A DNA stretch of 64,000 bases from Gemmatimonadaceae bacterium. Lineage in GTDB: Bacteria > Gemmatimonadota > Gemmatimonadetes > Gemmatimonadales > Gemmatimonadaceae. The stretch spans positions 768,001 to 832,000 of the forward strand of contig JBJMOW010000005.1 in assembly GCA_045803545.1 (NCBI GenBank). Reading direction: 5' to 3'. The stretch's first letter is position 1; each line of letters begins with the position of its first letter. The translations under genes were made by a program, and so were the position numbers. Below, piece by piece: positions 40,107 through 52,650 of this stretch. The notes below the pieces were generated by a model. That model made no database searches. It had not been told where the DNA came from and saw only the letters and a list, made by a program, of their open reading frames with translations.

Positions 40107-40412
40107 TCACGAGCCGGTCGAATCCGGCAGAATCTGGACGGTATCAGCAGGAAAGGCGTCCAGCGGATCGGGGCTGGAGTTGGGAATTCCCTCGACCTTC
40201 TCGCCTGGGCCGCTGTCGTCGCAGTCTTCCTCGCAGGTGACAACGCCGGAAATCAGGATGTATCGGCCGAAGGCGGCACCCGTGGGGGCGGTCAAACTGG
40301 CTTTCTTTTGAAGCGGACTGGTGGGGCCGGAGGGACCGGTGGAATCGCTGCAAGCGACGCTGCCACCGACGGCAAGAAGAGCAAAGCCCCAAAGCCAATG
40401 ACGACCTGACAT
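40107..40412 (-). CDS. Small lipoprotein (101 aa) carrying FGRYILISG-xxx-CEEDC; candidate peptide precursor
   Basis: GAGGGA upstream, lipobox SVAC, own sigma54 promoter, paralog at 46186-46416. Confidence 0.8.
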   Translation of the reverse strand: MSGRHWLWGFALLAVGGSVACSDSTGPSGPTSPLQKKASLTAPTGAAFGRYILISGVVTCEEDCDDSGPGEKVEGIPNSSPDPLDAFPADTVQILPDSTGS

Positions 40413-40472: not shown

Positions 40473-40519
40473 AGCATACCATGTGCCCCGAAGCAAGTCG
40501 TTTCGCCGTCGATACTTAG
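40473..40519 (-). promoter_or_regulatory. Sigma54 -24/-12 promoter with adjacent GCAA-N19-TTAG element
   Basis: Minus strand GGGCACATGGTATGCT (GG 40487-40486, GC 40475-40474); element 40493-40519. Confidence 0.8.
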
Positions 40520-40613: not shown

Positions 40614-42224
40614 CTAACCAGTGACCGTCCACTCGGCGAGATCCACCCACCACGCGTTTGGCCTGATTCCGATCGGATGAATCCGTTTGGATGCACCCTG
40701 GACGTTTCTCAACTCATAGATCCACATCGCAGGTGCGTCATCGGTGAGTATCCGATACGCCCGACGATACAACTCGGTGCTACGCGTCGGGTTCATCTCT
40801 CTGACTGCGCTGTCGATAAGGGCGTCGAACGCCGGATTGCTATAGGAGGTCGCGTTGTACCCGCCCTTCTTGATCTCAGAGCTCGCCCACTCCTCCCGCA
40901 CTGAAGATGGTGTCGGATCGATATGCCAGGCATTGAGCAGCACCTCGAATTTCCTGTTTTCCATATTGGCGCCGAAGGTGTTCAGCTCGAGCTCGTCGAT
41001 GCGAACTTCGGCGCCCGCCTTCCGCCACTGCTCCTGAAGCAAGACTGCGATTCGCTTACGAATGGTGCTCGAGCTTGGTACGCTCAAGCTGAATGAAAGC
41101 GGGATCGACCCGCGGGCGCGCATGCCGTTGGCGCCACGCTTCCAACCCAGGGAGTCAAGCGTGCGCGCCGCTCCGTCCGGATCATAGCGAAGCCCGAGGG
41201 TTGTATCGCTCGTGGCAAGAATTCGAGTCGCTGGACCATAGGCAACGAGGCCGAGCGTGTCGAATACGTTTTTCACGATCGACGCGCGATCGATTGCTCT
41301 CACCAAGGCGCGTCGGGTCTCTCGGTCGCCGAACACCGGGTGCGGTCCAGTATTCCGCGCATCGCGGAGGTTGAAAGCGGCGTACCCGTAGTCGAGGCTT
41401 CCGGCGGAGACGATCACGTCTTTGCCCTTCGACTTCACTTCCGCGACCCGTTCGGGCTTCACCACGTCGAGGAAGTCGGCGGTGCCGTCCAGAAATCTGA
41501 GCTCGGCGGTCGGATAATCCGCGGCGATCACCCAGATCACCCTGTCGGCATTCGGTCGACCCCGATAGTTGGTGGTGTCGGCCTGCAGCACGATTCGCGC
41601 GCTACGGTCCCACGACCCGAACTTGAAGCGGCCACTACCAACTGGCGCCCGGGCGAAATCGCTTTCCGCGAGCTTGGCCGCTTGTGTCTTCTCGAGCAAA
41701 TGTTGAGGCAGGATGACAACGGGTGTCGCCGCCTTGAAGAACTGATCGGGCGCACGTCTGTGAAACCATACGACTGCCGTCAGTGAATCGGGCACTGTCA
41801 CCGAATCAACATCGTCGAGATTCCCCGACAGCGGCGAAGCCAGTGAAGTGTCCTTCACCAGGCCGAAGGTGTAGCGCACGTCGTACGCGCTGACCGCCAC
41901 CCCGTCGTGCCAGCGTGCGCTGGGATTTATGTGAAATGATATCCAGGTCGAGTCGGGACTCCACCGCCAGCGATCGGCGAGTCGAGGAGTGAAGCCGGCG
42001 TCGCCGACGGTGTTCAAGGTCGGGCCCACATCAGCAAGGTTATCGAAAACCTGATCTACGACTTGCTTGCCCTGCAGCGTCAGTGTGAGGGGCGGCAACA
42101 GAACGTCAGCGTCTGCAGCGGTCGAGATGACGATCGTTCCACCTACACGCCTCTCCGTCGAGCACGCCGCGAGAACCGACATCAACGCGAGCGTGATCGA
42201 GAAAATGGGAGCTATTCTCTTCAA
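40614..42224 (-). CDS. Peptide ABC transporter substrate-binding lipoprotein (OppA/AppA-like, family 5), no permeases nearby
   Basis: Lipobox LAAC; LADRW, WHDG..VSAYDV.YT, PVGSGRFK, RRAL..AIDR; TTG start overlaps the upstream TGA (TTGA 42224-42221). Confidence 0.88.
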   Translation of the reverse strand: MKRIAPIFSITLALMSVLAACSTERRVGGTIVISTAADADVLLPPLTLTLQGKQVVDQVFDNLADVGPTLNTVGDAGFTPRLADRWRWSPDSTWISFHINPSARWHDGVAVSAYDVRYTFGLVKDTSLASPLSGNLDDVDSVTVPDSLTAVVWFHRRAPDQFFKAATPVVILPQHLLEKTQAAKLAESDFARAPVGSGRFKFGSWDRSARIVLQADTTNYRGRPNADRVIWVIAADYPTAELRFLDGTADFLDVVKPERVAEVKSKGKDVIVSAGSLDYGYAAFNLRDARNTGPHPVFGDRETRRALVRAIDRASIVKNVFDTLGLVAYGPATRILATSDTTLGLRYDPDGAARTLDSLGWKRGANGMRARGSIPLSFSLSVPSSSTIRKRIAVLLQEQWRKAGAEVRIDELELNTFGANMENRKFEVLLNAWHIDPTPSSVREEWASSEIKKGGYNATSYSNPAFDALIDSAVREMNPTRSTELYRRAYRILTDDAPAMWIYELRNVQGASKRIHPIGIRPNAWWVDLAEWTVTG

Positions 42225-43867
42225 ACGAAGTTTCCTATTGAGACGGCTGCAATGTTTTGCGGCGTCTGCCGGTCGGGAATCGTGGTGCTCGATGCCCATT
42301 CCAGAAACGCATCGAGCAGCATCGGATCGAACTGCCCGTTAGACGAGCGCATCACTTCGGCGGCACGCGCATGCGACAAGCTATCCCGGTACGACCGCGC
42401 CGTTGTCAGCGCGTCGTAGACGTCGGCGACGCAAAGAATCCGCGCAGCAAACGGGATATCATCCCCTTTCAGTCCATCCGGGTAGCCACTGCCATCCCAC
42501 CGCTCGTGATGATTGCGGATAATCGATCGCACATCACCCGGAAAATCGATGTCGGCCACGAGGTCCAGCCCCGCTTCCGGATGGCGCTTCATGATCGACC
42601 ACTCTTCCTCGGTGAGATCGCCCGCCTTGTTCAATACTTCGGTCGGTACGATGATCTTGCCGATGTCGTGGAGCAGTGCGCCAAGCCTGAACCAGAAGAG
42701 GGACTGGGCGTCCATCCCCATGCTGTCCGCCAGTACGCATGCAAAGAACGCGACGCGTTGGCAGTGACCCTGGGTGTAATGGTCTTTGCTCTCGATCGAA
42801 TCGCCCCAGTGGTGCGCCATCTCGAGAAACCTGGCTTCCAGCGCTGCGTTGCGACGTTCCACCTGCGCTACGCGGTGCTGTGCCTTTAGTCGTGAGTAAA
42901 GCGCGTGCGATTCGTTGAGGTGCGCGAGCATATCGCGATGCCGCTTCTGGGTCCAATACAGCTCCGCGAGTTGCTCGGTGACGTCTGCCTTCAGCAGCAG
43001 GTCCTCTGCTTCCTCGGCGCATTCTGACGCGCGGCCGAGGTATTCGGCGGCCTTCATGGAGTCGCCACGCTCACGTGCAATCACGCCGACATGGCGGAAG
43101 ACTTCACCGCGCCAGGAAGCGGTGATCTCACCCGTAAGCTCCAATAGTGGCGAGGCGCGTTCCTGCGCTTCCTCGAACCGGCCAGTCGCGATGCAGAGCT
43201 GAATCTGATTGAGGGCGACGTTCAGTCTGTTCGCCTGATCGTTCTCCTCACCGAAAGTGCGTTCCGCTTCGGCGTAGGCTTGCGCGGCGCTTTCGAGGTC
43301 CCCGAGGTCGCTATACGCGAGGCCAATGTTGTTGAGGACCTGCGCCGCCTGATCGCGCCGACCGAGCTTTCGATACCCTTCGAAACTCGACTTGAATGCG
43401 CTGAGCGCGCGGTTGATGTCACCGCGAATGCTGGCGACGGTACCCAGATTCTGATCGATCATCGCCAGTGCCTCTGCATCGCCAATCGACTGCGCGGTGA
43501 GGCGTGCTTCCGTGTAGCGCGACTCCGCCAGATCGAGATCACCACCGGTCTGATGGACGATGGCGACTACGTTGAGCGCTTGCGCGATTGCAGACGCTGA
43601 GCCGGCCTGCGATGCAGCGGCAACAGCCGCCTCCAATACATCCATCGCGGCGCCGCGATTGCCCAGCTCGAGGTAGACCCGGCCCAGCCAGCGCAGAGCG
43701 GACAGGCGGGTTACGTCGTCGGCAAACGGATTGCGCACGAGCAGCTCGTAGCGGTGCGACGCATCCGTCCAGCGACCCTCCCGCTCCGCGACTTTCGCTT
43801 CTTCAACGAGAGATTGTATTGCCTGCGATTCCACCTCGCTCTCGCGAGATGTGGAACGTGCCGTCAT
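42221..43867 (-). CDS. TPR-repeat plus HD-GYP phosphodiesterase, copy 1
   Basis: N-terminal TPRs; ESKDHYTQGH, LLHDIGK, HHERWDGSGYP, ADVYDAL. Confidence 0.92.
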   Translation of the reverse strand: MTARSTSRESEVESQAIQSLVEEAKVAEREGRWTDASHRYELLVRNPFADDVTRLSALRWLGRVYLELGNRGAAMDVLEAAVAAASQAGSASAIAQALNVVAIVHQTGGDLDLAESRYTEARLTAQSIGDAEALAMIDQNLGTVASIRGDINRALSAFKSSFEGYRKLGRRDQAAQVLNNIGLAYSDLGDLESAAQAYAEAERTFGEENDQANRLNVALNQIQLCIATGRFEEAQERASPLLELTGEITASWRGEVFRHVGVIARERGDSMKAAEYLGRASECAEEAEDLLLKADVTEQLAELYWTQKRHRDMLAHLNESHALYSRLKAQHRVAQVERRNAALEARFLEMAHHWGDSIESKDHYTQGHCQRVAFFACVLADSMGMDAQSLFWFRLGALLHDIGKIIVPTEVLNKAGDLTEEEWSIMKRHPEAGLDLVADIDFPGDVRSIIRNHHERWDGSGYPDGLKGDDIPFAARILCVADVYDALTTARSYRDSLSHARAAEVMRSSNGQFDPMLLDAFLEWASSTTIPDRQTPQNIAAVSIGNFV

Positions 43868-44883
43868 GACGATGCGAGAATGGTGCGCCGCTGGGAGCCT
43901 TCATCGCGCAGTTTGCGCGTCAAAGTGGGGCGGGAGATTCCAAGAATGCGGGCGGCCGCGCTCAGATTGCCACCGGTGAGGCCGATGGTGGTGTGAATCG
44001 CTTCGTCGACGATCGCCTGCAACGACTTCCCCTCGGGCGGGATGCGGATCATGCCGCCCGTCGGAGTTTCGACCAGCGGCACGTAGGAACGCCGCTGAAG
44101 TGAAAGGTGGTGCGGCTGAATGACGTCACCGGTACAGACGACAACCGCGCGCTCGATGACATTCTTGAGCTCGCGGATATTGCCCGGCCAACGGTGTCTT
44201 TCCAGCGCGGCGATCGAGTCCTGGCCCAGACGCAGGTTCTCCCGACCCTCACTTTCGGCGTGGCGGCGAACGAAAAAGTTGGCGAGGATAGGAATGTCTC
44301 CTTCCCTCTCGCGCAACGCCGGAAGCTCGAGCCTTGCAACGTTAAGTCGATAAAAGAGATCGGCACGGAAGCGGTTGTCAGCGACCGCCGTCTCCAGAGA
44401 CGAGTTTGTCCCTGCGACAATGCGTGCGTCAAGAGCGCGTTCTTCGGACCCGCCCAACCGCCGGAATCGCCTGTCTTCGACGACCCTTAGGAGCTTTGCC
44501 TGCAGCTTAAGTGGCAGTTCCGCGACCTCGTCGAGAAAAACAGTCCCGGCGCCGGCCACTTCGAAAAGACCCCGTTTTAACGCGCGGGCATCAGTAAACG
44601 CTCCCGGCTCGTGTCCAAAGAGCTCGCTTTCGAGCAAGGTTTCCGGGATGGCAGCGCAGTTAATCGCTACGAAAGGCTCGGCAGCCCGGGCGCTCGCCGC
44701 GTGGATGCCGCGGGCGAAAAGCTCTTTGCCAGTGCCCGTTTCACCTACGAGCAATACTGTCACGCTGCGACTCGCTGCCACTTGCGTCGCCAGGGCAATG
44801 ACTTCGCGGATTGCAGGGCTCTGTCCGATTACGTGAGCATCCCACCGCTCCTGCGCGGTTTGCTGCAGTCGGGCTGTAATAAT
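43864..44883 (-). CDS. Sigma54-dependent activator (AAA+ and Fis HTH, no sensory domain); true start probably upstream of GTG 44781, candidate ATT 44883/44880
   Basis: GETGTGKE, ESELFGHEPGAFTDA, FLDEV, FRADLFYRLN, WPGNIRELKN, GNLSAAARILGISRPTL; in-frame upstream IGQSPAIREV. Confidence 0.88.
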   Translation of the reverse strand: MITARLQQTAQERWDAHVIGQSPAIREVIALATQVAASRSVTVLLVGETGTGKELFARGIHAASARAAEPFVAINCAAIPETLLESELFGHEPGAFTDARALKRGLFEVAGAGTVFLDEVAELPLKLQAKLLRVVEDRRFRRLGGSEERALDARIVAGTNSSLETAVADNRFRADLFYRLNVARLELPALREREGDIPILANFFVRRHAESEGRENLRLGQDSIAALERHRWPGNIRELKNVIERAVVVCTGDVIQPHHLSLQRRSYVPLVETPTGGMIRIPPEGKSLQAIVDEAIHTTIGLTGGNLSAAARILGISRPTLTRKLRDEGSQRRTILASS

Positions 44884-45018: not shown

Positions 45019-46128
45019 TTAGAGCTCTGCCGTTGGGGGCTCTGAAATGTCCGGATTCGGGCGGATGTACTTCGGGCGCAATCGCGCAGCCTTCTCCTTC
45101 GATGGGCCTGTTCCGAGCGTTGCGAGCAGTGCTTTAATCTCGGCGGCGTCGGTTCTGGCACCAAGGTCGTCAAATGACTCAGCCGCCTCACGCCAGGCCA
45201 GCTCGGCGTCAGCATTGTTTCCCAGGGCGTGCGAGGTCTGACCGAGCTCACGAAGCATCTCCGCCTGTAAGAGGCGGTCTTCCAGCCCCTCTGCCTCGAA
45301 GATTCCGATACGAAGCGTAGCGAGACTGGCGCTCAGCGACCCGCGTTCGCGCTCGATGCGGGCACGGCACTTCAGCGCCTCGGCCATGGTGAGGTGGTCC
45401 CCGCGGTGGTGGGCGCTCCCATAGGCTTCGGCGCACGCGTGCTCCGCTTCGTCGAGTTTTCCCATCGCGACCCAAACCCAGCCGAGATTGAGAACCAGTA
45501 CGCTCTCGACGAGTGCATCGCCCCGATTGCGGGCAATTCGCAACCCGCGGTCGAAAGTCTCTACCGCCCGCTGATAGTGTCCGAGCTTCGTGTACAGCAT
45601 GCCCAGGTTATTGAGAACCCAGGACATTGCCTCGCTATCCCTTGTCTGCTCGAACGCGCCAAGGCTGTTGTAGTAGCGAGCTTCCGCGGCGACGAATCTG
45701 CCGCGCATGTTGAGGAGAACGCCCCGGTTCTGCTCGATCATTCCGAGCAGACGCACGTCGCCCGCTCTGGCGGCGTACTCCGCCGCTTCGTGATAAAGGC
45801 GCTCGCATTCGATGAGGTTGCCGCGTCGCTGGGCGATGATCGCCAGGCAATTGTACGCGTGTGCCTTGCAGGCGGCCGATCCAGAGAGATCCGCCTGGTG
45901 CAGACTCTCTGTGTAGCAGCGATACGCGGCTTCCGTCTCACCCTGCTCGCGATGCAGAGTTCCCTTCCAGCGAAGGGCTTCGGCTAGAGCAGCTGATTCC
46001 TGCTCACGCTCGAGGGATTCGATGGCGTCGTCGTAGTAGCCGAATGCCTTCGCTGTATCACCCCGCCGCTCAGCATCGCGTGCCAGCTCGATCAGGCGAC
46101 GCGATTCTTCAGGTGCAGTCTGCTTCAT
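45019..46128 (-). CDS. Cytoplasmic TPR-only protein, copy 1
   Basis: Tandem helical repeats (LRWKGTLHREQGE, MIEQNRG, VLNNLG); no signal peptide; paralog of 48326-49348. Confidence 0.88.
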   Translation of the reverse strand: MKQTAPEESRRLIELARDAERRGDTAKAFGYYDDAIESLEREQESAALAEALRWKGTLHREQGETEAAYRCYTESLHQADLSGSAACKAHAYNCLAIIAQRRGNLIECERLYHEAAEYAARAGDVRLLGMIEQNRGVLLNMRGRFVAAEARYYNSLGAFEQTRDSEAMSWVLNNLGMLYTKLGHYQRAVETFDRGLRIARNRGDALVESVLVLNLGWVWVAMGKLDEAEHACAEAYGSAHHRGDHLTMAEALKCRARIERERGSLSASLATLRIGIFEAEGLEDRLLQAEMLRELGQTSHALGNNADAELAWREAAESFDDLGARTDAAEIKALLATLGTGPSKEKAARLRPKYIRPNPDISEPPTAEL

Positions 46129-46185
46129 AAAAGCGAGACTGTGTTTCGGCCCATGCTACCCCTCGCGAGCGGTGAGGTGAACAGT

Positions 46186-46416
46186 CTACTTCAAACTGTC
46201 GGTTCTGAAAAGAAGATTTTTCGCTTGGTCGGTGCAGCCTTCGACACAGGCTTGCGCGCCAGAGATGAGAATGTAGCGCGAATATGCTGCAGTAACCGGA
46301 GAGCTGGAATTTACGGTTTTAAGAGGCGGGCTGGTAAGAGCGGTGTAATCTCCGCACGCAAGACACGCGACGGCGCTCACAGCCGCCAAATACTTAAACA
46401 AACGGCGACCTAACAT
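46186..46416 (-). CDS. Small lipoprotein (76 aa) carrying YSRYILISG-xxx-CVEGC; candidate peptide precursor
   Basis: GAGGTGG upstream, lipobox CLAC, own sigma54 promoter, paralog at 40107-40412. Confidence 0.8.
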   Translation of the reverse strand: MLGRRLFKYLAAVSAVACLACGDYTALTSPPLKTVNSSSPVTAAYSRYILISGAQACVEGCTDQAKNLLFRTDSLK

Positions 46417-46462
46417 GTGAACCACCTCGGAAAGAGATCTGGGTCCTTCCCAGCTCAACCGT

Positions 46463-46578
46463 GGCATAGGGCGTGCCCTTTGCTAACCCACTGTTCTACA
46501 TGATCTTAGCGCGAGTGGGTTGGTTTCCCGCATCCATTTTGTCGTAACGCCGCTTTACGATCGTAAACGTTTCTTTAG
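46463..46578 (-). promoter_or_regulatory. Sigma54 promoter, CTAA-N19-TTAG element and two putative activator sites
   Basis: Minus strand GGGCACGCCCTATGCC (GG 46477-46476, GC 46465-46464); element 46483-46509; CGTAACGCCGCTTTACG 46543 and CGTAAACGTTTCTTTAG 46562. Confidence 0.8.
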
Positions 46579-46594
46579 CGGACTTTCTTCGGCG

Positions 46595-48241
46595 TCACGC
46601 GGCGGGACTGGAGGCGAAAATCGCCAACCTTTGTGGCGTCGGACGGCCTGGAATGTCGGCGGTCTCGGCCCAGGCAAGGAAGGTTTCGAGTAGCTCGGGA
46701 TCAAATTGACCTGCTGATGACTGCATGATCTCGGCTGCGCGGGCGTGGGTCAGGCCCGGACGATAGGATCTGGTCGTGGTCAGGGCGTCGTAGACATCGG
46801 CCACGCAGAGAATTCGCGCCGCGTAAGGGATCTGCTCGCCCTTGAGGCCGTCCGGGTAGCCGGCACCATCCCAGCGCTCGTGATGATTGCGAATGATGGC
46901 GCGTATGTCACCGGGAAAATCGATGTCAGCGACCAGTTCGAGCCCCGCCTCGGGGTGACGCTTCATGATCGACCACTCTTCATCGGTCAGCTTGCCCGGC
47001 TTGTTTAGCACCTCGGTGGGAACGATGATTTTGCCAATGTCGTGCAGAAGTGCGCCAATCCTGAACCAGAACAGTGAGCGCGAATTGAATCCCGCGGTCT
47101 CGGCGAGTACGCACGCGAAGAAAGCGACGCGCTCGCAGTGGCCCTGGGTGTAGCGATCCTTGCTTTCGATCGAGTTGCCCCACTGCTTCGCCATCTCGAG
47201 GAAACGGGACTCCAAGGCATCGTTGCGCTTATCGACCTGTGCCACCCGATGCTGCGCCTTGAGCTGCGAATAGAGTGAGTGCGACTCGTTGAGCGAGTGA
47301 AGCATGTCGCGGTGCCGCTTCTGTGACCAGTAAACTTCCGCGAGCTGCTCCGCGACGTCCGCCCGCAGGAGAAGGTCACCGCTGTCGATTGCGAGATCTT
47401 CTGCGCGCAACAGGCTGTCGGTCGCTTTCGCGTAATCTCCGCACTCGCGAGCGATCACGCCCACGTGGCGGTGTACCTCCCCGCGCCACGGCGCCTGCTC
47501 CTTCGTGGCGACCTCCAATAGCTCGTCGCATTGGACGAGCGCTTCGTCGAAGCGACGTGCCGCGATGTAGAGCTGCACCTTGTTGACAGCGAGGTCGAGT
47601 TGTCGCGCGCGGTCTCCCTCTTCTTCGAACGCCCGAGCGGCTTCGTTGTACGCAACTTCGGCATCGCTCAGCTCGCCGAGCTCCATGTAGGCGAGTGCGA
47701 TGTTGTTCAGTATCTGAGCTTCATGATTACGCATGCCCAGAGTCTGGTATCCGAGATGGCTCAGACGGAAAGCTTCGAGCGCAACCCGGATGTCGCCGCG
47801 GATCATTGCGACCGTGCCGAGGTTTTGATCGATCATGGCGATCAATGCGCCGTCGCCGGCCACCTCCGCTTTGGCGCGCGCGGCGGCGTAAATAGCGGCA
47901 GCCTGGTCGAGGTCTCCGCCAACCTGGTAGGCGATGCCAACCACGTTGAGCGCCTGAGCCACGGCCGGTGGCGAGCCACAGATGTCAGCAGATGTGACCG
48001 CCAATTCGAGCACGTCCAGCGCCGCGCCACGATTCCCCTGCTCGAGATAGGCGCGACCGAGCCAGCGGAGGGCGGCAAGGCGAGTATCCGGCTGCGTGTG
48101 GGGGTCGCGAACCAACGTCTCATAGACTGCGCAGGCGTCGGCCCATCGACCTTCCCGCTCGGCTTTCTTGGCGAGGTCAATACTTTCGCGAACGGTGGTG
48201 GATTCCACCGCCTTCAATTCAACTGTGGGCCGGTTGGTCAT
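46595..48241 (-). CDS. TPR-repeat plus HD-GYP phosphodiesterase, copy 2
   Basis: 548 aa like copy 1; ESKDRYTQGH, LLHDIGK, HHERWDGAGYP. Confidence 0.92.
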   Translation of the reverse strand: MTNRPTVELKAVESTTVRESIDLAKKAEREGRWADACAVYETLVRDPHTQPDTRLAALRWLGRAYLEQGNRGAALDVLELAVTSADICGSPPAVAQALNVVGIAYQVGGDLDQAAAIYAAARAKAEVAGDGALIAMIDQNLGTVAMIRGDIRVALEAFRLSHLGYQTLGMRNHEAQILNNIALAYMELGELSDAEVAYNEAARAFEEEGDRARQLDLAVNKVQLYIAARRFDEALVQCDELLEVATKEQAPWRGEVHRHVGVIARECGDYAKATDSLLRAEDLAIDSGDLLLRADVAEQLAEVYWSQKRHRDMLHSLNESHSLYSQLKAQHRVAQVDKRNDALESRFLEMAKQWGNSIESKDRYTQGHCERVAFFACVLAETAGFNSRSLFWFRIGALLHDIGKIIVPTEVLNKPGKLTDEEWSIMKRHPEAGLELVADIDFPGDIRAIIRNHHERWDGAGYPDGLKGEQIPYAARILCVADVYDALTTTRSYRPGLTHARAAEIMQSSAGQFDPELLETFLAWAETADIPGRPTPQRLAIFASSPAA

Positions 48242-48325: not shown

Positions 48326-49348
48326 CTACTGCAGCAGCTCGAGCTGATTCCTGACTTCTGTTAGCTCTGGCACAGCTCCGATCTTCTCGTACGAGTCAAA
48401 AGCTTCTCGCAAGGCAGAGCGCGCAGCGCCGGCGTTGCCTACGGCACGGGAGATCTCGCCCAGCTCGCGAAGCATTTCGGCGTGGAGGAGCCGGTCTTCG
48501 GCTCCTTCGGCTTCGTAGATCGCGATGCGGAGCGTGGCAATGCTCATGTCGAGCGCACCACGCTGCCGCTCGATGGCGGCACGGACACGCAGCGCGCCAG
48601 CAGCGCTGAGGTGGTCTCCGCGACGTTGCGCCTGACCAAGTGCGTCGACGCACCAGAGGTCTGCTTTGTCGAGTCTGCCGAGACCCATCCACGCTTCGGC
48701 GATGTTCAGCGTGATGACGTTCTTCACGATGCTATCGTTCCGGGCGATTGCGATCGCCATCCCGCGCTGCAGATGCTCGAGCGCTTCGCCGTAATTGCGC
48801 AACTTGGTGTTCAGAATTCCCAGGTTGTTGAGAACCCAGGACATCGGTTCGGTGTCACCCGCGGTCTCGAAAGCACCGAGGCTATTGGAGTAGAACGCCG
48901 CGGCCTTTCCATAGTCGCCAACCATGCTCGCGAGCACACCGCGATTCTGTTCTATCATGCCGAGCAGGCGCGCCTCTCCAGCCTTCACGGCGAGCTCGGA
49001 CGCTTCCGCGTAGAGACGCTCGGTTTCCTTGTGCTCGCAGCGACGCTGCGAGATGGTGCCGAGGCAGTTGAGTGCGTGAGCCTGGTGACCGATGGAACCG
49101 GTCGCTCTTGCCCTCTCCAGGCTTGCCGTATAACAGCGAAACGCTGCTTCGGTTTCGCCCCGCTCCCGAAGCAGCGTTCCTTTCCATCGCAAAACGTCGG
49201 CGATAAATGCGTCGGTGCAATCCTCACCGAGCTGCGCCAGCGCATCGTCGAACAGACCAAGCGCCTTGTCGTTTTCTTCCCGCTTTTCAGCTGTTCGCGC
49301 CAGTTCTACAAGTTGGCGGGCGCGCTCTACATTCTTTGAGTTTTTCAT
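48326..49348 (-). CDS. Cytoplasmic TPR-only protein, copy 2
   Basis: LRWKGTLLRERGETEAA, MIEQNRG, VLNNLG, EDRLLHAEMLRELG. Confidence 0.88.
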   Translation of the reverse strand: MKNSKNVERARQLVELARTAEKREENDKALGLFDDALAQLGEDCTDAFIADVLRWKGTLLRERGETEAAFRCYTASLERARATGSIGHQAHALNCLGTISQRRCEHKETERLYAEASELAVKAGEARLLGMIEQNRGVLASMVGDYGKAAAFYSNSLGAFETAGDTEPMSWVLNNLGILNTKLRNYGEALEHLQRGMAIAIARNDSIVKNVITLNIAEAWMGLGRLDKADLWCVDALGQAQRRGDHLSAAGALRVRAAIERQRGALDMSIATLRIAIYEAEGAEDRLLHAEMLRELGEISRAVGNAGAARSALREAFDSYEKIGAVPELTEVRNQLELLQ

Positions 49349-49396: not shown

Positions 49397-50050
49397 TCAG
49401 CCTGACGCCAGCATGTATCGGGAGAAGTGGTTCAACAGCCACGTCTCGACTTCAGCCTGGCCGCTGCGTGGATTCGAGAAAATCGTGGTCGTTTCGATTT
49501 CCAACGCACGTAGAATGCCTGACAGATCCAGCAGGTCGTGGGCGAAATACGCGCCGAACGAATTCAGTGCCTTCGGCGTGCCGTATACCGCAGTGTTGTT
49601 GAGGCGCTGGGTGACGACCACCGGTTTACGGAACGTGAGACCGTGCGGCTGCATGTCATAAGCGACGTAGCCGGTGCCGTCCGACGTGATGGTGATAGTG
49701 GTCGACGAGGTCAACGCGCCGTAGGGGAAACTGATCGTGAAGTCCGATCCCGGGATGGCGAGGGTTCCACCATTGACGCCAATCGTCGCAGAAACGCTGC
49801 GGACCTGATTGACGTGAGAAGGTGACCACTTCACTGCGTTGACCGGTATACCGTTCGGATCCGTCTGGAATCCGATGACGCGGATCACGTCGCCGAGGAG
49901 ATTGACGACTCCGCCGACGAGTCCTGAAAGGAGACCGTTATCGGCGGTGGTTGGAGCGACTGGTTGAGTTGGGATGCTGTCCGTGCACGACATGACTCCG
50001 ACAGCCGTGACAACGAGCAGCAGCGAGCGGAAAAATCTTGAGCGAATCAT
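49397..50050 (-). CDS. ZU5-like-domain lipoprotein ending HFSRYMLASG (start trimmed to ATG 50050)
   Basis: Lipobox VMSC; IGVNGGTLAIPGSDFTISFPYGAL and MQPHGLTFRKPV match the ZU5 pattern; terminal HFS. Confidence 0.8.
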   Translation of the reverse strand: MIRSRFFRSLLLVVTAVGVMSCTDSIPTQPVAPTTADNGLLSGLVGGVVNLLGDVIRVIGFQTDPNGIPVNAVKWSPSHVNQVRSVSATIGVNGGTLAIPGSDFTISFPYGALTSSTTITITSDGTGYVAYDMQPHGLTFRKPVVVTQRLNNTAVYGTPKALNSFGAYFAHDLLDLSGILRALEIETTTIFSNPRSGQAEVETWLLNHFSRYMLASG

Positions 50051-50085: not shown

Positions 50086-50706
50086 TCAACCAGAAGCAAG
50101 CATGTAACGCGAGAAGTGCCTGATGATCCACACCTGCGCTTCAGGGAGCCGCGCATTGAGTGGCGAGAAGATCGTGGTCGAAGGCTCGATCTCGAGGACC
50201 GGGACTTTGCCACTGAGCTTCACCTTATCATCGGAGATATAGGCCGCGAAGATCGACGTTCTCAGCGGCTGACCTGCGACGGTGGTGTTGCGCAGGGACT
50301 GCGTGATGGTGACGTCTTTTTTGAACTGCGTCCCCGTCGGCTCCATCTTGTAGGCGACGTACTTCTCGTCGGCCGTGACGGTGATGGTCAGCGCCGAGCC
50401 GAGCGCCCCGGCCGGGATGTCCATCGTGAAGCCGGTTTCGGGAATCGAGATCCGCCCGCCAGACTGATCGACGCGCTGCGAAACCTTTACCTGAGTTTTG
50501 CCTTTGTTGCTCCACCACAGGGCATGCAGCTCGAGGTCAGCCGCGGCATTGTTTATCGAACTGGTAACCGAGCCGGAGCCAGGACCTTTCGCGGCAGCTG
50601 CGTCCAGGGGAGCAGTGAGACTCTGGAGAGCGGGATCGGCGCAGGAAGCGATAAGGAGCGCGCCGACGAGCGAGCCAAAGGATCTGAAGAGTCTAAGGCG
50701 AAGCAT
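50086..50706 (-). CDS. ZU5-like-domain lipoprotein ending HFSRYMLASG
   Basis: Lipobox IASC; VDQSGGRISIPETGFTMDIPAGAL and MEPTGTQFKKDV; terminal HFS. Confidence 0.8.
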   Translation of the reverse strand: MLRLRLFRSFGSLVGALLIASCADPALQSLTAPLDAAAAKGPGSGSVTSSINNAAADLELHALWWSNKGKTQVKVSQRVDQSGGRISIPETGFTMDIPAGALGSALTITVTADEKYVAYKMEPTGTQFKKDVTITQSLRNTTVAGQPLRTSIFAAYISDDKVKLSGKVPVLEIEPSTTIFSPLNARLPEAQVWIIRHFSRYMLASG

Positions 50707-50748: not shown

Positions 50749-50881
50749 GGCAACGGCTGTGCCCAGCGCTAAGCTGTTTTAAATCAATGAGTTAGCTTTT
50801 CCACATTGAGCGAGCTCATCAATAACGGTGCAATATTTTTTTACACCCGAAATTTTTCTTTACATCTGTCAATTTTTTACG
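50749..50881 (-). promoter_or_regulatory. Sigma54 promoter, IHF-consensus site and putative activator sites
   Basis: Minus strand TGGGCACAGCCGTTGCC (GG 50763-50762, GC 50751-50750); CTAA-N19-TTAG 50769-50795 containing AATCAATGAGTTA (WATCAANNNNTTR); TTTAC at 50840, 50859, 50876. Confidence 0.85.
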
Positions 50882-51084: not shown

Positions 51085-52650
51085 ATGTCGATGGCAAATA
51101 ACAGAGCACGGCTCGTCGTAGCCGTAATTACCGCTTTTGTAGGCGGATTGATCGTCGCATCCGGGTTCAACTGGACCAAGCTCGGATTTGCGCAAACTCG
51201 TCCCGCCGCGGCAGTAGTCCAGCCAATTGCCGAGGCCAGCAACGCGTTCGTCGCGATCGCCAACAACGTCACTCCGGCGGTCGTTTCGATCGAAGTCGTA
51301 AGCACGCCGAAGAGCTCGAATAGCACGACTCGCGGACGCGTCCAGGTTCCACAAGGCGTTCCGCCTGACATGCAGGACTTCTTCCGTCAATTCGATATCC
51401 CGCAGCAATCGCGTCCAATGCGCGGTCAGGGTTCCGGGTTCATCGTAACGTCGAACGGATACATTCTTACCAACAATCACGTCGTCACCAATCAGGATCG
51501 TGAAACGGTGGCCGATCGCGTGACGGTGAGACTGCTCGATCATCGCGTGTTCACTGCGAAAGTGATCGGTCACGATCGCACGACCGACGTCGCGGTAATC
51601 AAGATCGATGGCAGCAACTTCCCCACCTTGCCGCTTGGCAACGATATGAACGCGCGCACCGGCGAATGGGTACTCGCGATCGGCAATCCGCTTGGTCTCG
51701 AAAATACCGTCACCGCCGGTATCATCAGCGCGAAAGGCCGCAGCCTCGCCGAGCTGATGAATCCGAATGGAACGAATCAGTACGCGATCAGCGATCTGAT
51801 ACAGACCGACGCGGCGATCAACCCCGGCAACTCCGGTGGTCCGCTCGTCAATGCGCGTGGCGAAGTGATCGGCATCAACAGCGCGATCGCCAGTCCGACC
51901 GGCTATAACGCGGGCTACGGTTTCGCAATTCCGATCACGCTGGCTAAGCGCGTCATGGATCAGCTCATTGCCAATGGGCGCGTACGCGTTCCGGCGCTCG
52001 GCATCGGCATCGATGATGTGAGTCCTGAAGACGCAGCGGTCGCGGGCGTGAAAGACATTCGAGGCGTTCTCGTTCGGAACTTCCCGAGCGACGATACGCC
52101 GGCTAAGAAGGCGGGCCTTCAGCCGGGTGACGTGATCATCACGGCGGATGGTCAGCCGGTCGATCGCGTCAGCACTCTCCAGAGAATCGTGCGCAATCAC
52201 AACCCTGGCGAGACGATCGAGATCGAAGCGATGCGGTACGGTCAGCGCAAGACTTTCAGCGTCAAGTTGATGGAAGCGCAGACTGACGCCGAAGTCGCTT
52301 CCAGTAACTCCACTCCCGCGAGCAACGGCGGCACCATTCATCCGGCGCTGGGGATCGCAGTGGCGCCGGTAAGTGCCGAGATGGCGGCGCAGGCAAGGAT
52401 GCCAACTCCAGTTCGTGGCGTCATGGTTTCCGATGTCACCCCTGGCGGTCCTGCCGACGAGAAGCTGACTCAGAACGACGTCATCACCGAAGTCCTTTAC
52501 CCGCTGCCGCGCCGTCCGATCAACTCGCCGACGGATCTACAGTCGATACTGAAAGGATTGAAGAACGGCGAGTATATCAGTCTCAGTGTTTTCAACCTAG
52601 CGGACAGAAATCATGCTCCGCGGATCGTCAACATTCAGGTTGGCAGATAG
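51085..52650 (+). CDS. degP: HtrA/DegP-family serine protease with two PDZ domains
   Basis: GSGFIV, TNNHVV, DVAVIK, QTDAAINPGNSGGPL. Confidence 0.92.
   Translation: MSMANNRARLVVAVITAFVGGLIVASGFNWTKLGFAQTRPAAAVVQPIAEASNAFVAIANNVTPAVVSIEVVSTPKSSNSTTRGRVQVPQGVPPDMQDFFRQFDIPQQSRPMRGQGSGFIVTSNGYILTNNHVVTNQDRETVADRVTVRLLDHRVFTAKVIGHDRTTDVAVIKIDGSNFPTLPLGNDMNARTGEWVLAIGNPLGLENTVTAGIISAKGRSLAELMNPNGTNQYAISDLIQTDAAINPGNSGGPLVNARGEVIGINSAIASPTGYNAGYGFAIPITLAKRVMDQLIANGRVRVPALGIGIDDVSPEDAAVAGVKDIRGVLVRNFPSDDTPAKKAGLQPGDVIITADGQPVDRVSTLQRIVRNHNPGETIEIEAMRYGQRKTFSVKLMEAQTDAEVASSNSTPASNGGTIHPALGIAVAPVSAEMAAQARMPTPVRGVMVSDVTPGGPADEKLTQNDVITEVLYPLPRRPINSPTDLQSILKGLKNGEYISLSVFNLADRNHAPRIVNIQVGR

Follow-up and report, generated by a model that had tools for sequence, protein, structure and literature searches.

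A window of 64,000 nucleotides from a Gemmatimonadaceae bacterium contains a small gene that raises the question of what a lipoprotein might do that carries the last strand of a putatively self-cleaving domain and lacks the domain itself. A sequence-only reading of this window had described a 76-amino-acid (aa) lipoprotein with the motif YSRYILISG and with neither a ZU5 domain nor a catalytic His, and had proposed that it is a minimal precursor, a variant agonist or antagonist, or a strand that swaps into an emptied ZU5 domain. Bacterial ZU5 domains are described as processing domains of toxins and large surface proteins (PMC3482391). As described in a preprint on the MAIN domain, the cut falls between F and S of an HFS motif and the last strand is held noncovalently; the preprint states that signaling has so far not been linked to the C-terminal fragment, and its main text does not contain the terms “ZU5,” “lipoprotein,” “Gemmatimonad,” or “tetratricopeptide” (bioRxiv 10.64898/2026.05.12.724683). 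The repeated loss of the cutting domain with retention of its eight-residue tail, reported here, suggests that the tail is a portable signaling peptide for the adjacent TPR regulator.

The gene and its locus

The gene is real and lies on the minus strand, read from 46416 to 46186; the plus-strand reading is not the gene. Its lipobox, Ser/Thr/Pro linker, core, and CVEGC motif, all named in the sequence-only reading, were located between 46362 and 46234 (Table 1). The protein matched no family in Pfam or NCBIfam, and the ZU5/GAIN-B beta-sandwich found in its long orthologs is absent. Where an HxS/T motif would stand it has AYS, the His having gone with the deletion described below; H-F-S is unchanged in all 28 aligned long forms, and the lipobox Cys (C21) is unchanged in all 27 aligned short forms. 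A six-frame scan of the 3.7-Mb genome with the core pattern gave nine matches, four of them in the locus (the two ZU5 genes, the 76-aa gene, and a second ZU5-less lipoprotein gene) and five that fit the loose pattern only. Assembly error does not account for the missing domain, since a DNA-run contig from another study covers 45721 to 46690 without a gap and shows 22 differences. Soil metatranscriptome contigs also cover the gene (X15, 46033 to 46430, 11 differences; X8, 45927 to 46293); we did not count them as expression because their strand and level are not given and DNA carry-over is possible.

Along the minus strand, the locus consists of a sigma54 site, ZU5 genes A and B, TPR1, TPR-HD-GYP 1, a second sigma54 site, the 76-aa gene (“slot 3”), TPR2, a sigma54 activator gene, TPR-HD-GYP 2, a family-5 binding protein gene, a third sigma54 site, and the second ZU5-less lipoprotein gene (“slot 4”), beyond which dnaK lies on the other strand. 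The placement proposed earlier, as the first gene behind a sigma54-type promoter and directly upstream of a TPR gene in the position that ZU5 genes hold elsewhere, was borne out: the -24/-12 site lies 48 nucleotides (nt) before the ATG, TPR2 begins 57 nt downstream, and the same order recurs in 41 loci. The sites were named by the sigma54 -24/-12 consensus. All 40 orthologous slot-3 promoters with enough sequence have the site, against about 0.002 sites expected per stretch of that size, and slot-3 and slot-4 sites stand at near-fixed distances. With a matrix built from the slot-3 and slot-4 sites, the three precursor promoters took ranks 1 to 3 of 776 genome candidates, slot 3 at the top; this ranking is partly circular, the promoter of ZU5 A having been left out of the matrix construction. 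The genome encodes sigma54, four family-5 binding proteins (SBP_bac_5), three S8 peptidases, and, outside the locus, two OppC-type (OppC_N) permeases. Among 12 distant loci, several of which stop at contig ends, a family-5 binding protein gene adjoins the unit in two.

Table 1. Features of the locus and of related loci. Positions are those of the window unless a contig handle precedes them; a slash marks the predicted cleavage site.
Feature	Position	Strand	Basis or remark
ZU5 lipoprotein A, ending HF/SRYMLASG-stop	50086..50706	-	Pfam ZU5 weak, E 4-6e-4 (A and B)
ZU5 lipoprotein B, ending HF/SRYMLASG-stop	49397..50050	-	Pfam ZU5 weak, E 4-6e-4 (A and B)
Sigma54-type site before ZU5 A	50750..50763	-	2nd of 776 candidate genome sites
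TPR1, stand-alone TPR protein, follows MLA-type cores	48326..49348	-	
TPR-HD-GYP protein 1	46595..48241	-	
Sigma54-type -24/-12 site of the 76-aa gene	46464..46477	-	40/40 orthologous promoters
76-aa ZU5-less lipoprotein precursor (slot 3)	46186..46416	-	ORF and locus comparison
Signal peptide and lipobox LAC (LAC at 46362-46354), Cys21 the conserved Cys	46354..46416	-	
Ser/Thr/Pro linker ending VTAAY, equal to the xASF-ending linker ahead of ZU5 in long orthologs	46282..46353	-	
Core octapeptide SRYILISG, corresponding to the strand that follows HF/ in orthologs with ZU5	46258..46281	-	YSRYILISG at 46284-46258
Cys pair CVEGC, presumed disulfide	46234..46248	-	
TPR2, stand-alone TPR protein, presumed receptor of the ILI core	45019..46128	-	no signal peptide seen
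Sigma54 enhancer-binding protein without sensory domain	43864..44883	-	start inferred at ATT codon behind AAGGA
TPR-HD-GYP protein 2	42221..43867	-	HD and GYP motifs present
Family-5 (Opp/Dpp-type) solute-binding lipoprotein	40614..42299	-	true start probably further in
Sigma54-type site of the second short gene	40474..40487	-	7/7 orthologs
Second ZU5-less precursor (slot 4), 101 aa, core GRYILISG (40268-40245) and CEEDC	40107..40412	-	
TRYILASG lipoprotein behind dnaK	L116:14309-14587	-	
TRYILASG lipoprotein behind dnaK	L139:7672-7941	-	
TRYILASG lipoprotein behind dnaK	L135:1567-1830	+	

The short form derives from a full ZU5 lipoprotein

A search with TPR2 found a match in 60 of 108 other genomes of the genus; long regions were compared for 43 of these, which with the window makes 44 loci. 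Genomes flagged as unpublished (G007, G033, G034, G134, G213, G214, G297, and G298) entered the search tallies only. Slot 3 holds a gene in 41, short in 20 and long, i.e., a full ZU5 lipoprotein ending HF/SRYILISG, in 21. Two genomes (G133 and G279) have a single unit only, and slot 3 of a third (G238, L131:960-1215) consists of a sigma54 site and a start-less tail, the TPR2 there lying on a long branch.

The long form, a lipoprotein of 208 to 220 aa, shares its signal and linker with the short form; these are followed by a ZU5 body and, as the tail, HF-SRYILIS[GN]. The AlphaFold model of the long form (pLDDT 84.5) matches the ZU5 domains of ankyrin and UNC5b (best E, 3e-6), and the core is the terminal ZU5 strand in that model (E199-209). 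In the 19 complete long forms, the linker closes with xx-F 24 to 29 residues after the Cys, and joining this F to the S after HF removes 148 to 150 residues and yields the short form, whose junction coincides exactly with the predicted scissile bond. The “AAY” of the 76-aa protein is therefore the old linker end and not a mutated “NHF.” A full precursor ending in HFS precedes the TPR gene in 24 of 26 loci from other genera, so that the long form is ancestral. By this comparison, the gene is shown to encode a lipoprotein derived from a full ZU5 lipoprotein through an in-frame deletion that left the linker (...xASF) directly joined to SRYILISG, the strand that follows the autoproteolytic site.

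Recurrence of the deletion and selection on the core

A tree of five locus proteins (41 rows) requires at least three changes between short and long forms, and at least four when 13 metagenome loci are added. In a tree of the promoter and N-terminal DNA that both forms share, short forms group with long sisters, and a single short clade was rejected (p-AU, 8e-5; 47 rows, two long rows flagged). As judged from these trees, the ZU5-less form is shown to have arisen at least four times in the genus; by the change counts alone, the ZU5 domain may instead have been regained by recombination in some branches. Microhomology at the junction is 0 to 6 nt in the present long forms (19 genes), while the same genes offer 5 to 16 other in-frame repeats of at least 5 nt. 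Mutation bias alone thus does not explain the common junction, and the comparison of these genes points to selection as its cause.

Pairwise pN/pS among 19 short forms (G282 left out; synonymous sites near saturation) was 0.056 for the core, 0.24 for the Cys tail, 0.34 for the junction, 0.62 for the linker, and 0.89 for the signal sequence. Judging by these ratios, the core is under strong purifying selection. The open frame, lipobox, and promoter are kept in all 20 short loci. The Cys pair is present in 19 of 20 short forms versus 5 of 21 long forms; these counts reduce to three independent pairs (sign test, P = 0.5).

In the JGI metagenomes, 158 relatives were found with the short-form profile, of which 80 were kept. 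The profile also gave 33 loci in GTDB genomes, whose titles all read Gemmatimonadaceae, Gemmatimonadales, Gemmatimonadetes, or Gemmatimonadota, and, in a protein collection, 293 clusters among 8,000 scored. The 113 metagenome and GTDB loci gave 72 distinct short sequences, 66 of which have a Cys-to-core distance of 25 to 26; the residue before the core is F or Y in 71 of 72, as the scan pattern required, and the invariance of the core was likewise built into the pattern and is not evidence. Outside the genus, the slot-3 profile matched signal peptides only in 301 genomes of the order, and a single-protein search of 201 family genomes (E ≤ 1) returned mostly noise, with only two genus-mates informative. 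Among viral contigs, the short-form pattern gave one stretch and no relative, and the single match to P0153, a two-core protein described below, covers the signal peptide only; the ZU5-less precursor is not phage-borne within the viral contigs searched.

The putative TPR partner

The TPR2 model is an all-helical TPR superhelix (pLDDT 94.4) whose best matches are the peptide-binding TPRs of LGN/Pins; by fold, the RapJ-CSF complex matches with a TM score of 0.66. By profile, RapJ (E, 3e-6) and NprR (E, 4e-5) are far surpassed by LGN/Pins and kinesin light chain, so that the likeness may be one of TPRs in general. In a tree of 75 TPRs, a single clade unites all 41 TPRs encoded behind an ILI-type core, irrespective of precursor length; this association may be plain coinheritance of neighbors. 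No specific covariation was seen between Y-to-W core variants (four genomes) and six locus proteins including TPR2 or between G-to-D/N core variants (five genomes) and TPR1, and the columns diagnostic of short versus long forms tracked the big clade, not the independent deletions.

The ILI tail of the 21 full-length slot-3 genes, together with the 41 of 41 clade, identifies ILI as the normal allele of this slot and not an antagonist variant. The earlier suggestion of a variant agonist or antagonist (IL-I versus ML-A) is accordingly not supported: in 21 of 41 loci, SRYILISG is the ordinary tail of the full ZU5 protein of this slot.

A wider family of ZU5-less precursors

The slot-4 gene belongs to a same-strand duplicate type with its own sigma54 site, which was found in 7 of 28 intervals between the binding protein gene and dnaK; in the window its core has Ser1 replaced by Gly. 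One genome (G267) has the duplicate and still has a long slot-3 gene. Three other such intervals hold an opposite-strand lipoprotein of unrelated type with TRYILASG and C-x9-C (Table 1). No sigma54 site was found for this type, which has 26 relatives and occurs in two further genomes.

Profiles of the slot-4 and TRYILASG types reached stand-alone ZU5-less lipoproteins of 57 to 107 aa. Among 46 such hits, the core is SRYILISG in 23, SRYMLASG in 15, SRYMLASD in 2, and SRYILISN in 2, with six single variants. The free cores SRYILISG, SRYMLASG, SRYMLASD, SRYILISN, SRYILVSG, and TRYILASG have identical or nearly identical counterparts among the ZU5 tails, where the D and N variants also occur. ZU5-less forms have S, T, G, A, or N at core position 1, which therefore does not require a nucleophile. 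The residue before the core in stand-alone forms is N, S, Y, T, or another, and most short forms have 10 to 50 residues after the core. A Cys pair is found in 45 of the 46 hits, the profile itself having contained Cys; the types differ in its spacing (x2, x3, x9, or x10) but retain the core, and neither G282 nor P0155 has the pair. Two of the 46 carry tandem cores with repeated upstream spacers (P0153, MLA plus ILI; P0155, ILI twice); each is represented by one database sequence, the contigs being 616 and 1,960 bases long and without gene context.

Two stand-alone profiles, each run against 301 family genomes, gave one real case outside the genus. Beside its HD-GYP genes, G143, of another genus, encodes a lipoprotein of 64 aa that carries SGYIYATG and a Cys pair (L316:1459-1653, minus strand), and its ZU5 protein ends in the similar HF-SGYIWSTG. 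The 31 genomes of the genus of G143 gave one weak further match, unconfirmed by the motif filter. By these comparisons, the core moves from one delivery vehicle to another and follows the local ZU5 allele, as expected of a ligand.

A propeptide model and its alternatives

We favor, with a probability of about 0.6, the reading that the gene encodes a Phr-like lipoprotein propeptide whose core would be cut out by envelope proteases, imported, and read by a cytoplasmic TPR protein that controls the sigma54 activator and the HD-GYP enzymes. The precursor would be exported and lipidated, and the octapeptide core would be its functional product, a signal. In long forms, by analogy with MAIN, the core would be made by ZU5 self-cleavage at HF/S. 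In short forms, it would be excised by envelope proteases, roughly 25 residues away from the lipid anchor. Sequences of the form xA[SAT][FY]/S would suit the specificity of subtilisin- or chymotrypsin-like enzymes, and such an enzyme may cut there to release the slot-3 core. With the domain lost, the Cys pair may take over the protection or shaping of the free end. The peptide would be taken up by an Opp/Dpp-type importer through the family-5 binding protein of the locus and would bind cytoplasmic TPR2, which would act on the sensorless sigma54 activator, the TPR-HD-GYP enzymes, or both. Because all three precursor promoters are of the sigma54 type, such a loop would be autoinducing, and the locus would hold two channels, an MLA core with TPR1 and an ILI core with TPR2. 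Translation, cleavage, import, and binding are steps that we infer from sequence comparison. Counting against the mechanism, the P1 residue differs between slot-3 forms (F/Y) and stand-alone forms, so that no single protease rule applies, and the 10 to 50 residues after the core in most short forms would call for a second cut. The absence of residue-level covariation between core variants and either TPR, the closer likeness of TPR2 to LGN than to RRNPP proteins, and the rare adjacency of the binding protein gene in distant loci (2 of 12) also weigh against it. The earlier proposal of a minimal precursor agrees with this reading, the gene being conserved and its product incapable of self-cleavage, with the His removed and Gly, Ala, or Asn at core position 1 in some relatives.

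The lack of a common P1 residue in stand-alone forms and the long, variable tails after the core would also fit an uncut ligand tethered in the envelope. The core would then stand at a fixed distance from the membrane, closed by a disulfide; its receptor, periplasmic or on the cell surface, would be the family-5 binding protein or another envelope protein. Consistent with this, the lipid anchor is always kept, as is, in 66 of 72 short forms, the Cys-to-core distance. We nevertheless consider such tethering unlikely: the stop-terminated cores of ZU5 A and B would be free octapeptides, the tandem cores with their repeated spacers look like excised units, and the conserved neighbors are cytoplasmic TPRs, while the binding protein gene is often not adjacent.

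Strand exchange, in which the core would enter ZU5 A or B in place of the cleaved last strand and displace the resident peptide or block the domain, draws on the position of the core as the terminal ZU5 strand and on the match between free and ZU5 alleles. At least two upstream ZU5 genes are present in 10 of 10 short versus 9 of 13 long loci, a small and nonindependent sample. The swap into an emptied ZU5 domain suggested by the sequence-only reading is disfavored, however, since the cognate ILI-type ZU5 is the one that was deleted and the remaining ZU5s carry MLA. Moreover, short forms stay before TPR2 behind the same promoter as the long forms they replaced, and G, A, or N at core position 1 excludes completion of autoproteolysis in trans for those copies. 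Strand exchange is therefore quite unlikely in our judgment.

An antagonist or interference peptide against the MLA channel would account for the two-residue difference from MLA, and the extra and stand-alone copies, some of them on the opposite strand without a sigma54 site, could serve cross-talk. The standing of ILI as the normal full ZU5 tail in 21 slot-3 loci and its tracking of the TPR2 clade (41 of 41) make this role improbable. We give even less weight to a RiPP precursor or a small metal- or redox-active lipoprotein with CxxxC as the working part. The prevalence of the Cys pair (19 of 20 short forms and 45 of 46 stand-alone hits, with a profile that contained Cys) speaks for such a function, but no modifying enzyme was found among the scanned locus genes (TPR, HD-GYP, sigma54 activator, binding protein, and ZU5 genes), the spacing of the Cys pair varies around a constant core, and G282 and P0155 do without the pair. 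That the gene is a decaying ZU5 remnant is scarcely credible: the start-less tail in G238 shows that the gene can be lost, but decay is contradicted by the codon data (core pN/pS of 0.056 with synonymous sites near saturation), by the intact frame, lipobox, and promoter of all 20 short loci, and by duplication with the promoter in 7 of 28 intervals and the 293 protein clusters.

Relation to known systems and significance

The propeptide reading resembles the RRNPP(A) propeptide-receptor pairs of Bacillota (Phr-Rap, PapR-PlcR, and NprX-NprR), some of whose propeptides are described as carrying duplicated pheromones (PMC11343458), much as some precursors here carry tandem cores. A small exported propeptide gene adjoins a cytoplasmic TPR gene (57 nt before TPR2; 41 loci), a family-5 binding protein is encoded nearby, a short conserved core sits in a variable precursor, the TPR protein is Rap-like in having no DNA-binding domain, and the genome has Opp-type reimport genes as a candidate route for the peptide. 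The differences are as follows: the hosts belong to a diderm phylum, the named relatives being Gemmatimonadaceae or Gemmatimonadota metagenome-assembled genomes and not Bacillota; the precursor has a lipobox Cys with the core in the mature part, in contrast to a Sec/signal peptidase I propeptide; the ancestral precursor appears to include a ZU5 domain that cleaves itself; TPR2 bears a closer likeness to eukaryotic LGN/Pins than to Rap or NprR; and the outputs would be a sigma54 activator and HD-GYP enzymes. We thus regard the system as Phr- or PapR-like in its working and do not file it as RRNPP, given the lipoprotein precursor, the diderm host, and a receptor whose likeness to Rap and NprR may be no more than that of TPR proteins in general. 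Propeptide-TPR signaling is a known kind, and there is a real chance of a new class here.

Enterococcal sex pheromones are hydrophobic 7- to 8-mers from lipoprotein genes that are taken up by Opp-type import and bound by a receptor of TPR fold. Their peptide lies within the signal sequence, whereas the core here lies 25 residues after the lipidated Cys and the signal sequence is nearly unconstrained (pN/pS, 0.89). With the ZU5, GAIN, and MAIN domains, the system shares long orthologs that have the ZU5 fold and an unchanged HFS; the 76-aa protein, with neither the domain nor the His, is not itself a ZU5 or MAIN protein, though descended from one. ZU5 and MAIN domains are described as freeing large ectodomains or toxins, while the fragment here has 8 to 30 residues and survives loss of the domain. 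The literature searched, mostly outside subscription journals, contained no description of a ZU5-TPR system or of ZU5-less forms. Judged by their titles and abstracts, papers in which the strings HFSRY or HFSGY occur were unrelated.

The repeated deletions amount to a dissection carried out by nature, in which selection cares about the eight residues after the cut and not about the domain. Since repeated, precise domain loss names the active part, the system is testable with synthetic octapeptides. If the core binds, imported-peptide signaling through cytoplasmic TPRs, which the papers searched describe in Bacillota, would extend to a diderm soil phylum. Binding would also answer, for one bacterial family, whether the C-terminal fragment of an HFS domain signals, a point left open in the MAIN preprint (bioRxiv 10.64898/2026.05.12.724683). 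More tentatively, and at slightly less than even odds, Gemmatimonadota may run a multichannel peptide communication of their own. The terminal beta-strand of a ZU5 domain that cuts itself would serve as the signal, as a bacterial “tethered agonist” that is freed and imported. The self-cleaving precursor, possibly gated by force or stress, would repeatedly have given rise to pheromone precursors that are constitutive and matured by proteases, extending to polyproteins with two signals, and the output would be sigma54 transcription and c-di-GMP breakdown.

Further observations on the locus

An HtrA-like protease gene (51085 to 52650, plus strand) is divergent from the locus in this genus; HtrA was considered as a dedicated partner and dropped, being found in none of 12 distant loci. 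The sigma54 site at 46462 to 46477 is nearly palindromic, so that GG-N10-GC also occurs on the plus strand, facing the end of TPR-HD-GYP 1; that copy scores 8.7, and no open reading frame was found behind it. Slot-3 promoters carry an A/T-rich element ending in TTAG or TTGG about 10 nt before the -24 box, which in some genomes fits the IHF consensus. Several orthologs of the sigma54 activator gene have no ATG, GTG, or TTG at the likely start and instead have AAGGA followed by ATT, ATC, or ACT-ATC, which suggests a noncanonical start codon. Finally, precursor-TPR pairs are duplicated as units in L114, L115, L105, L125, L216, and L222, where either an extra SRYILASG ZU5 gene accompanies an extra TPR1-type gene or an extra long slot-3 gene accompanies an extra TPR2.
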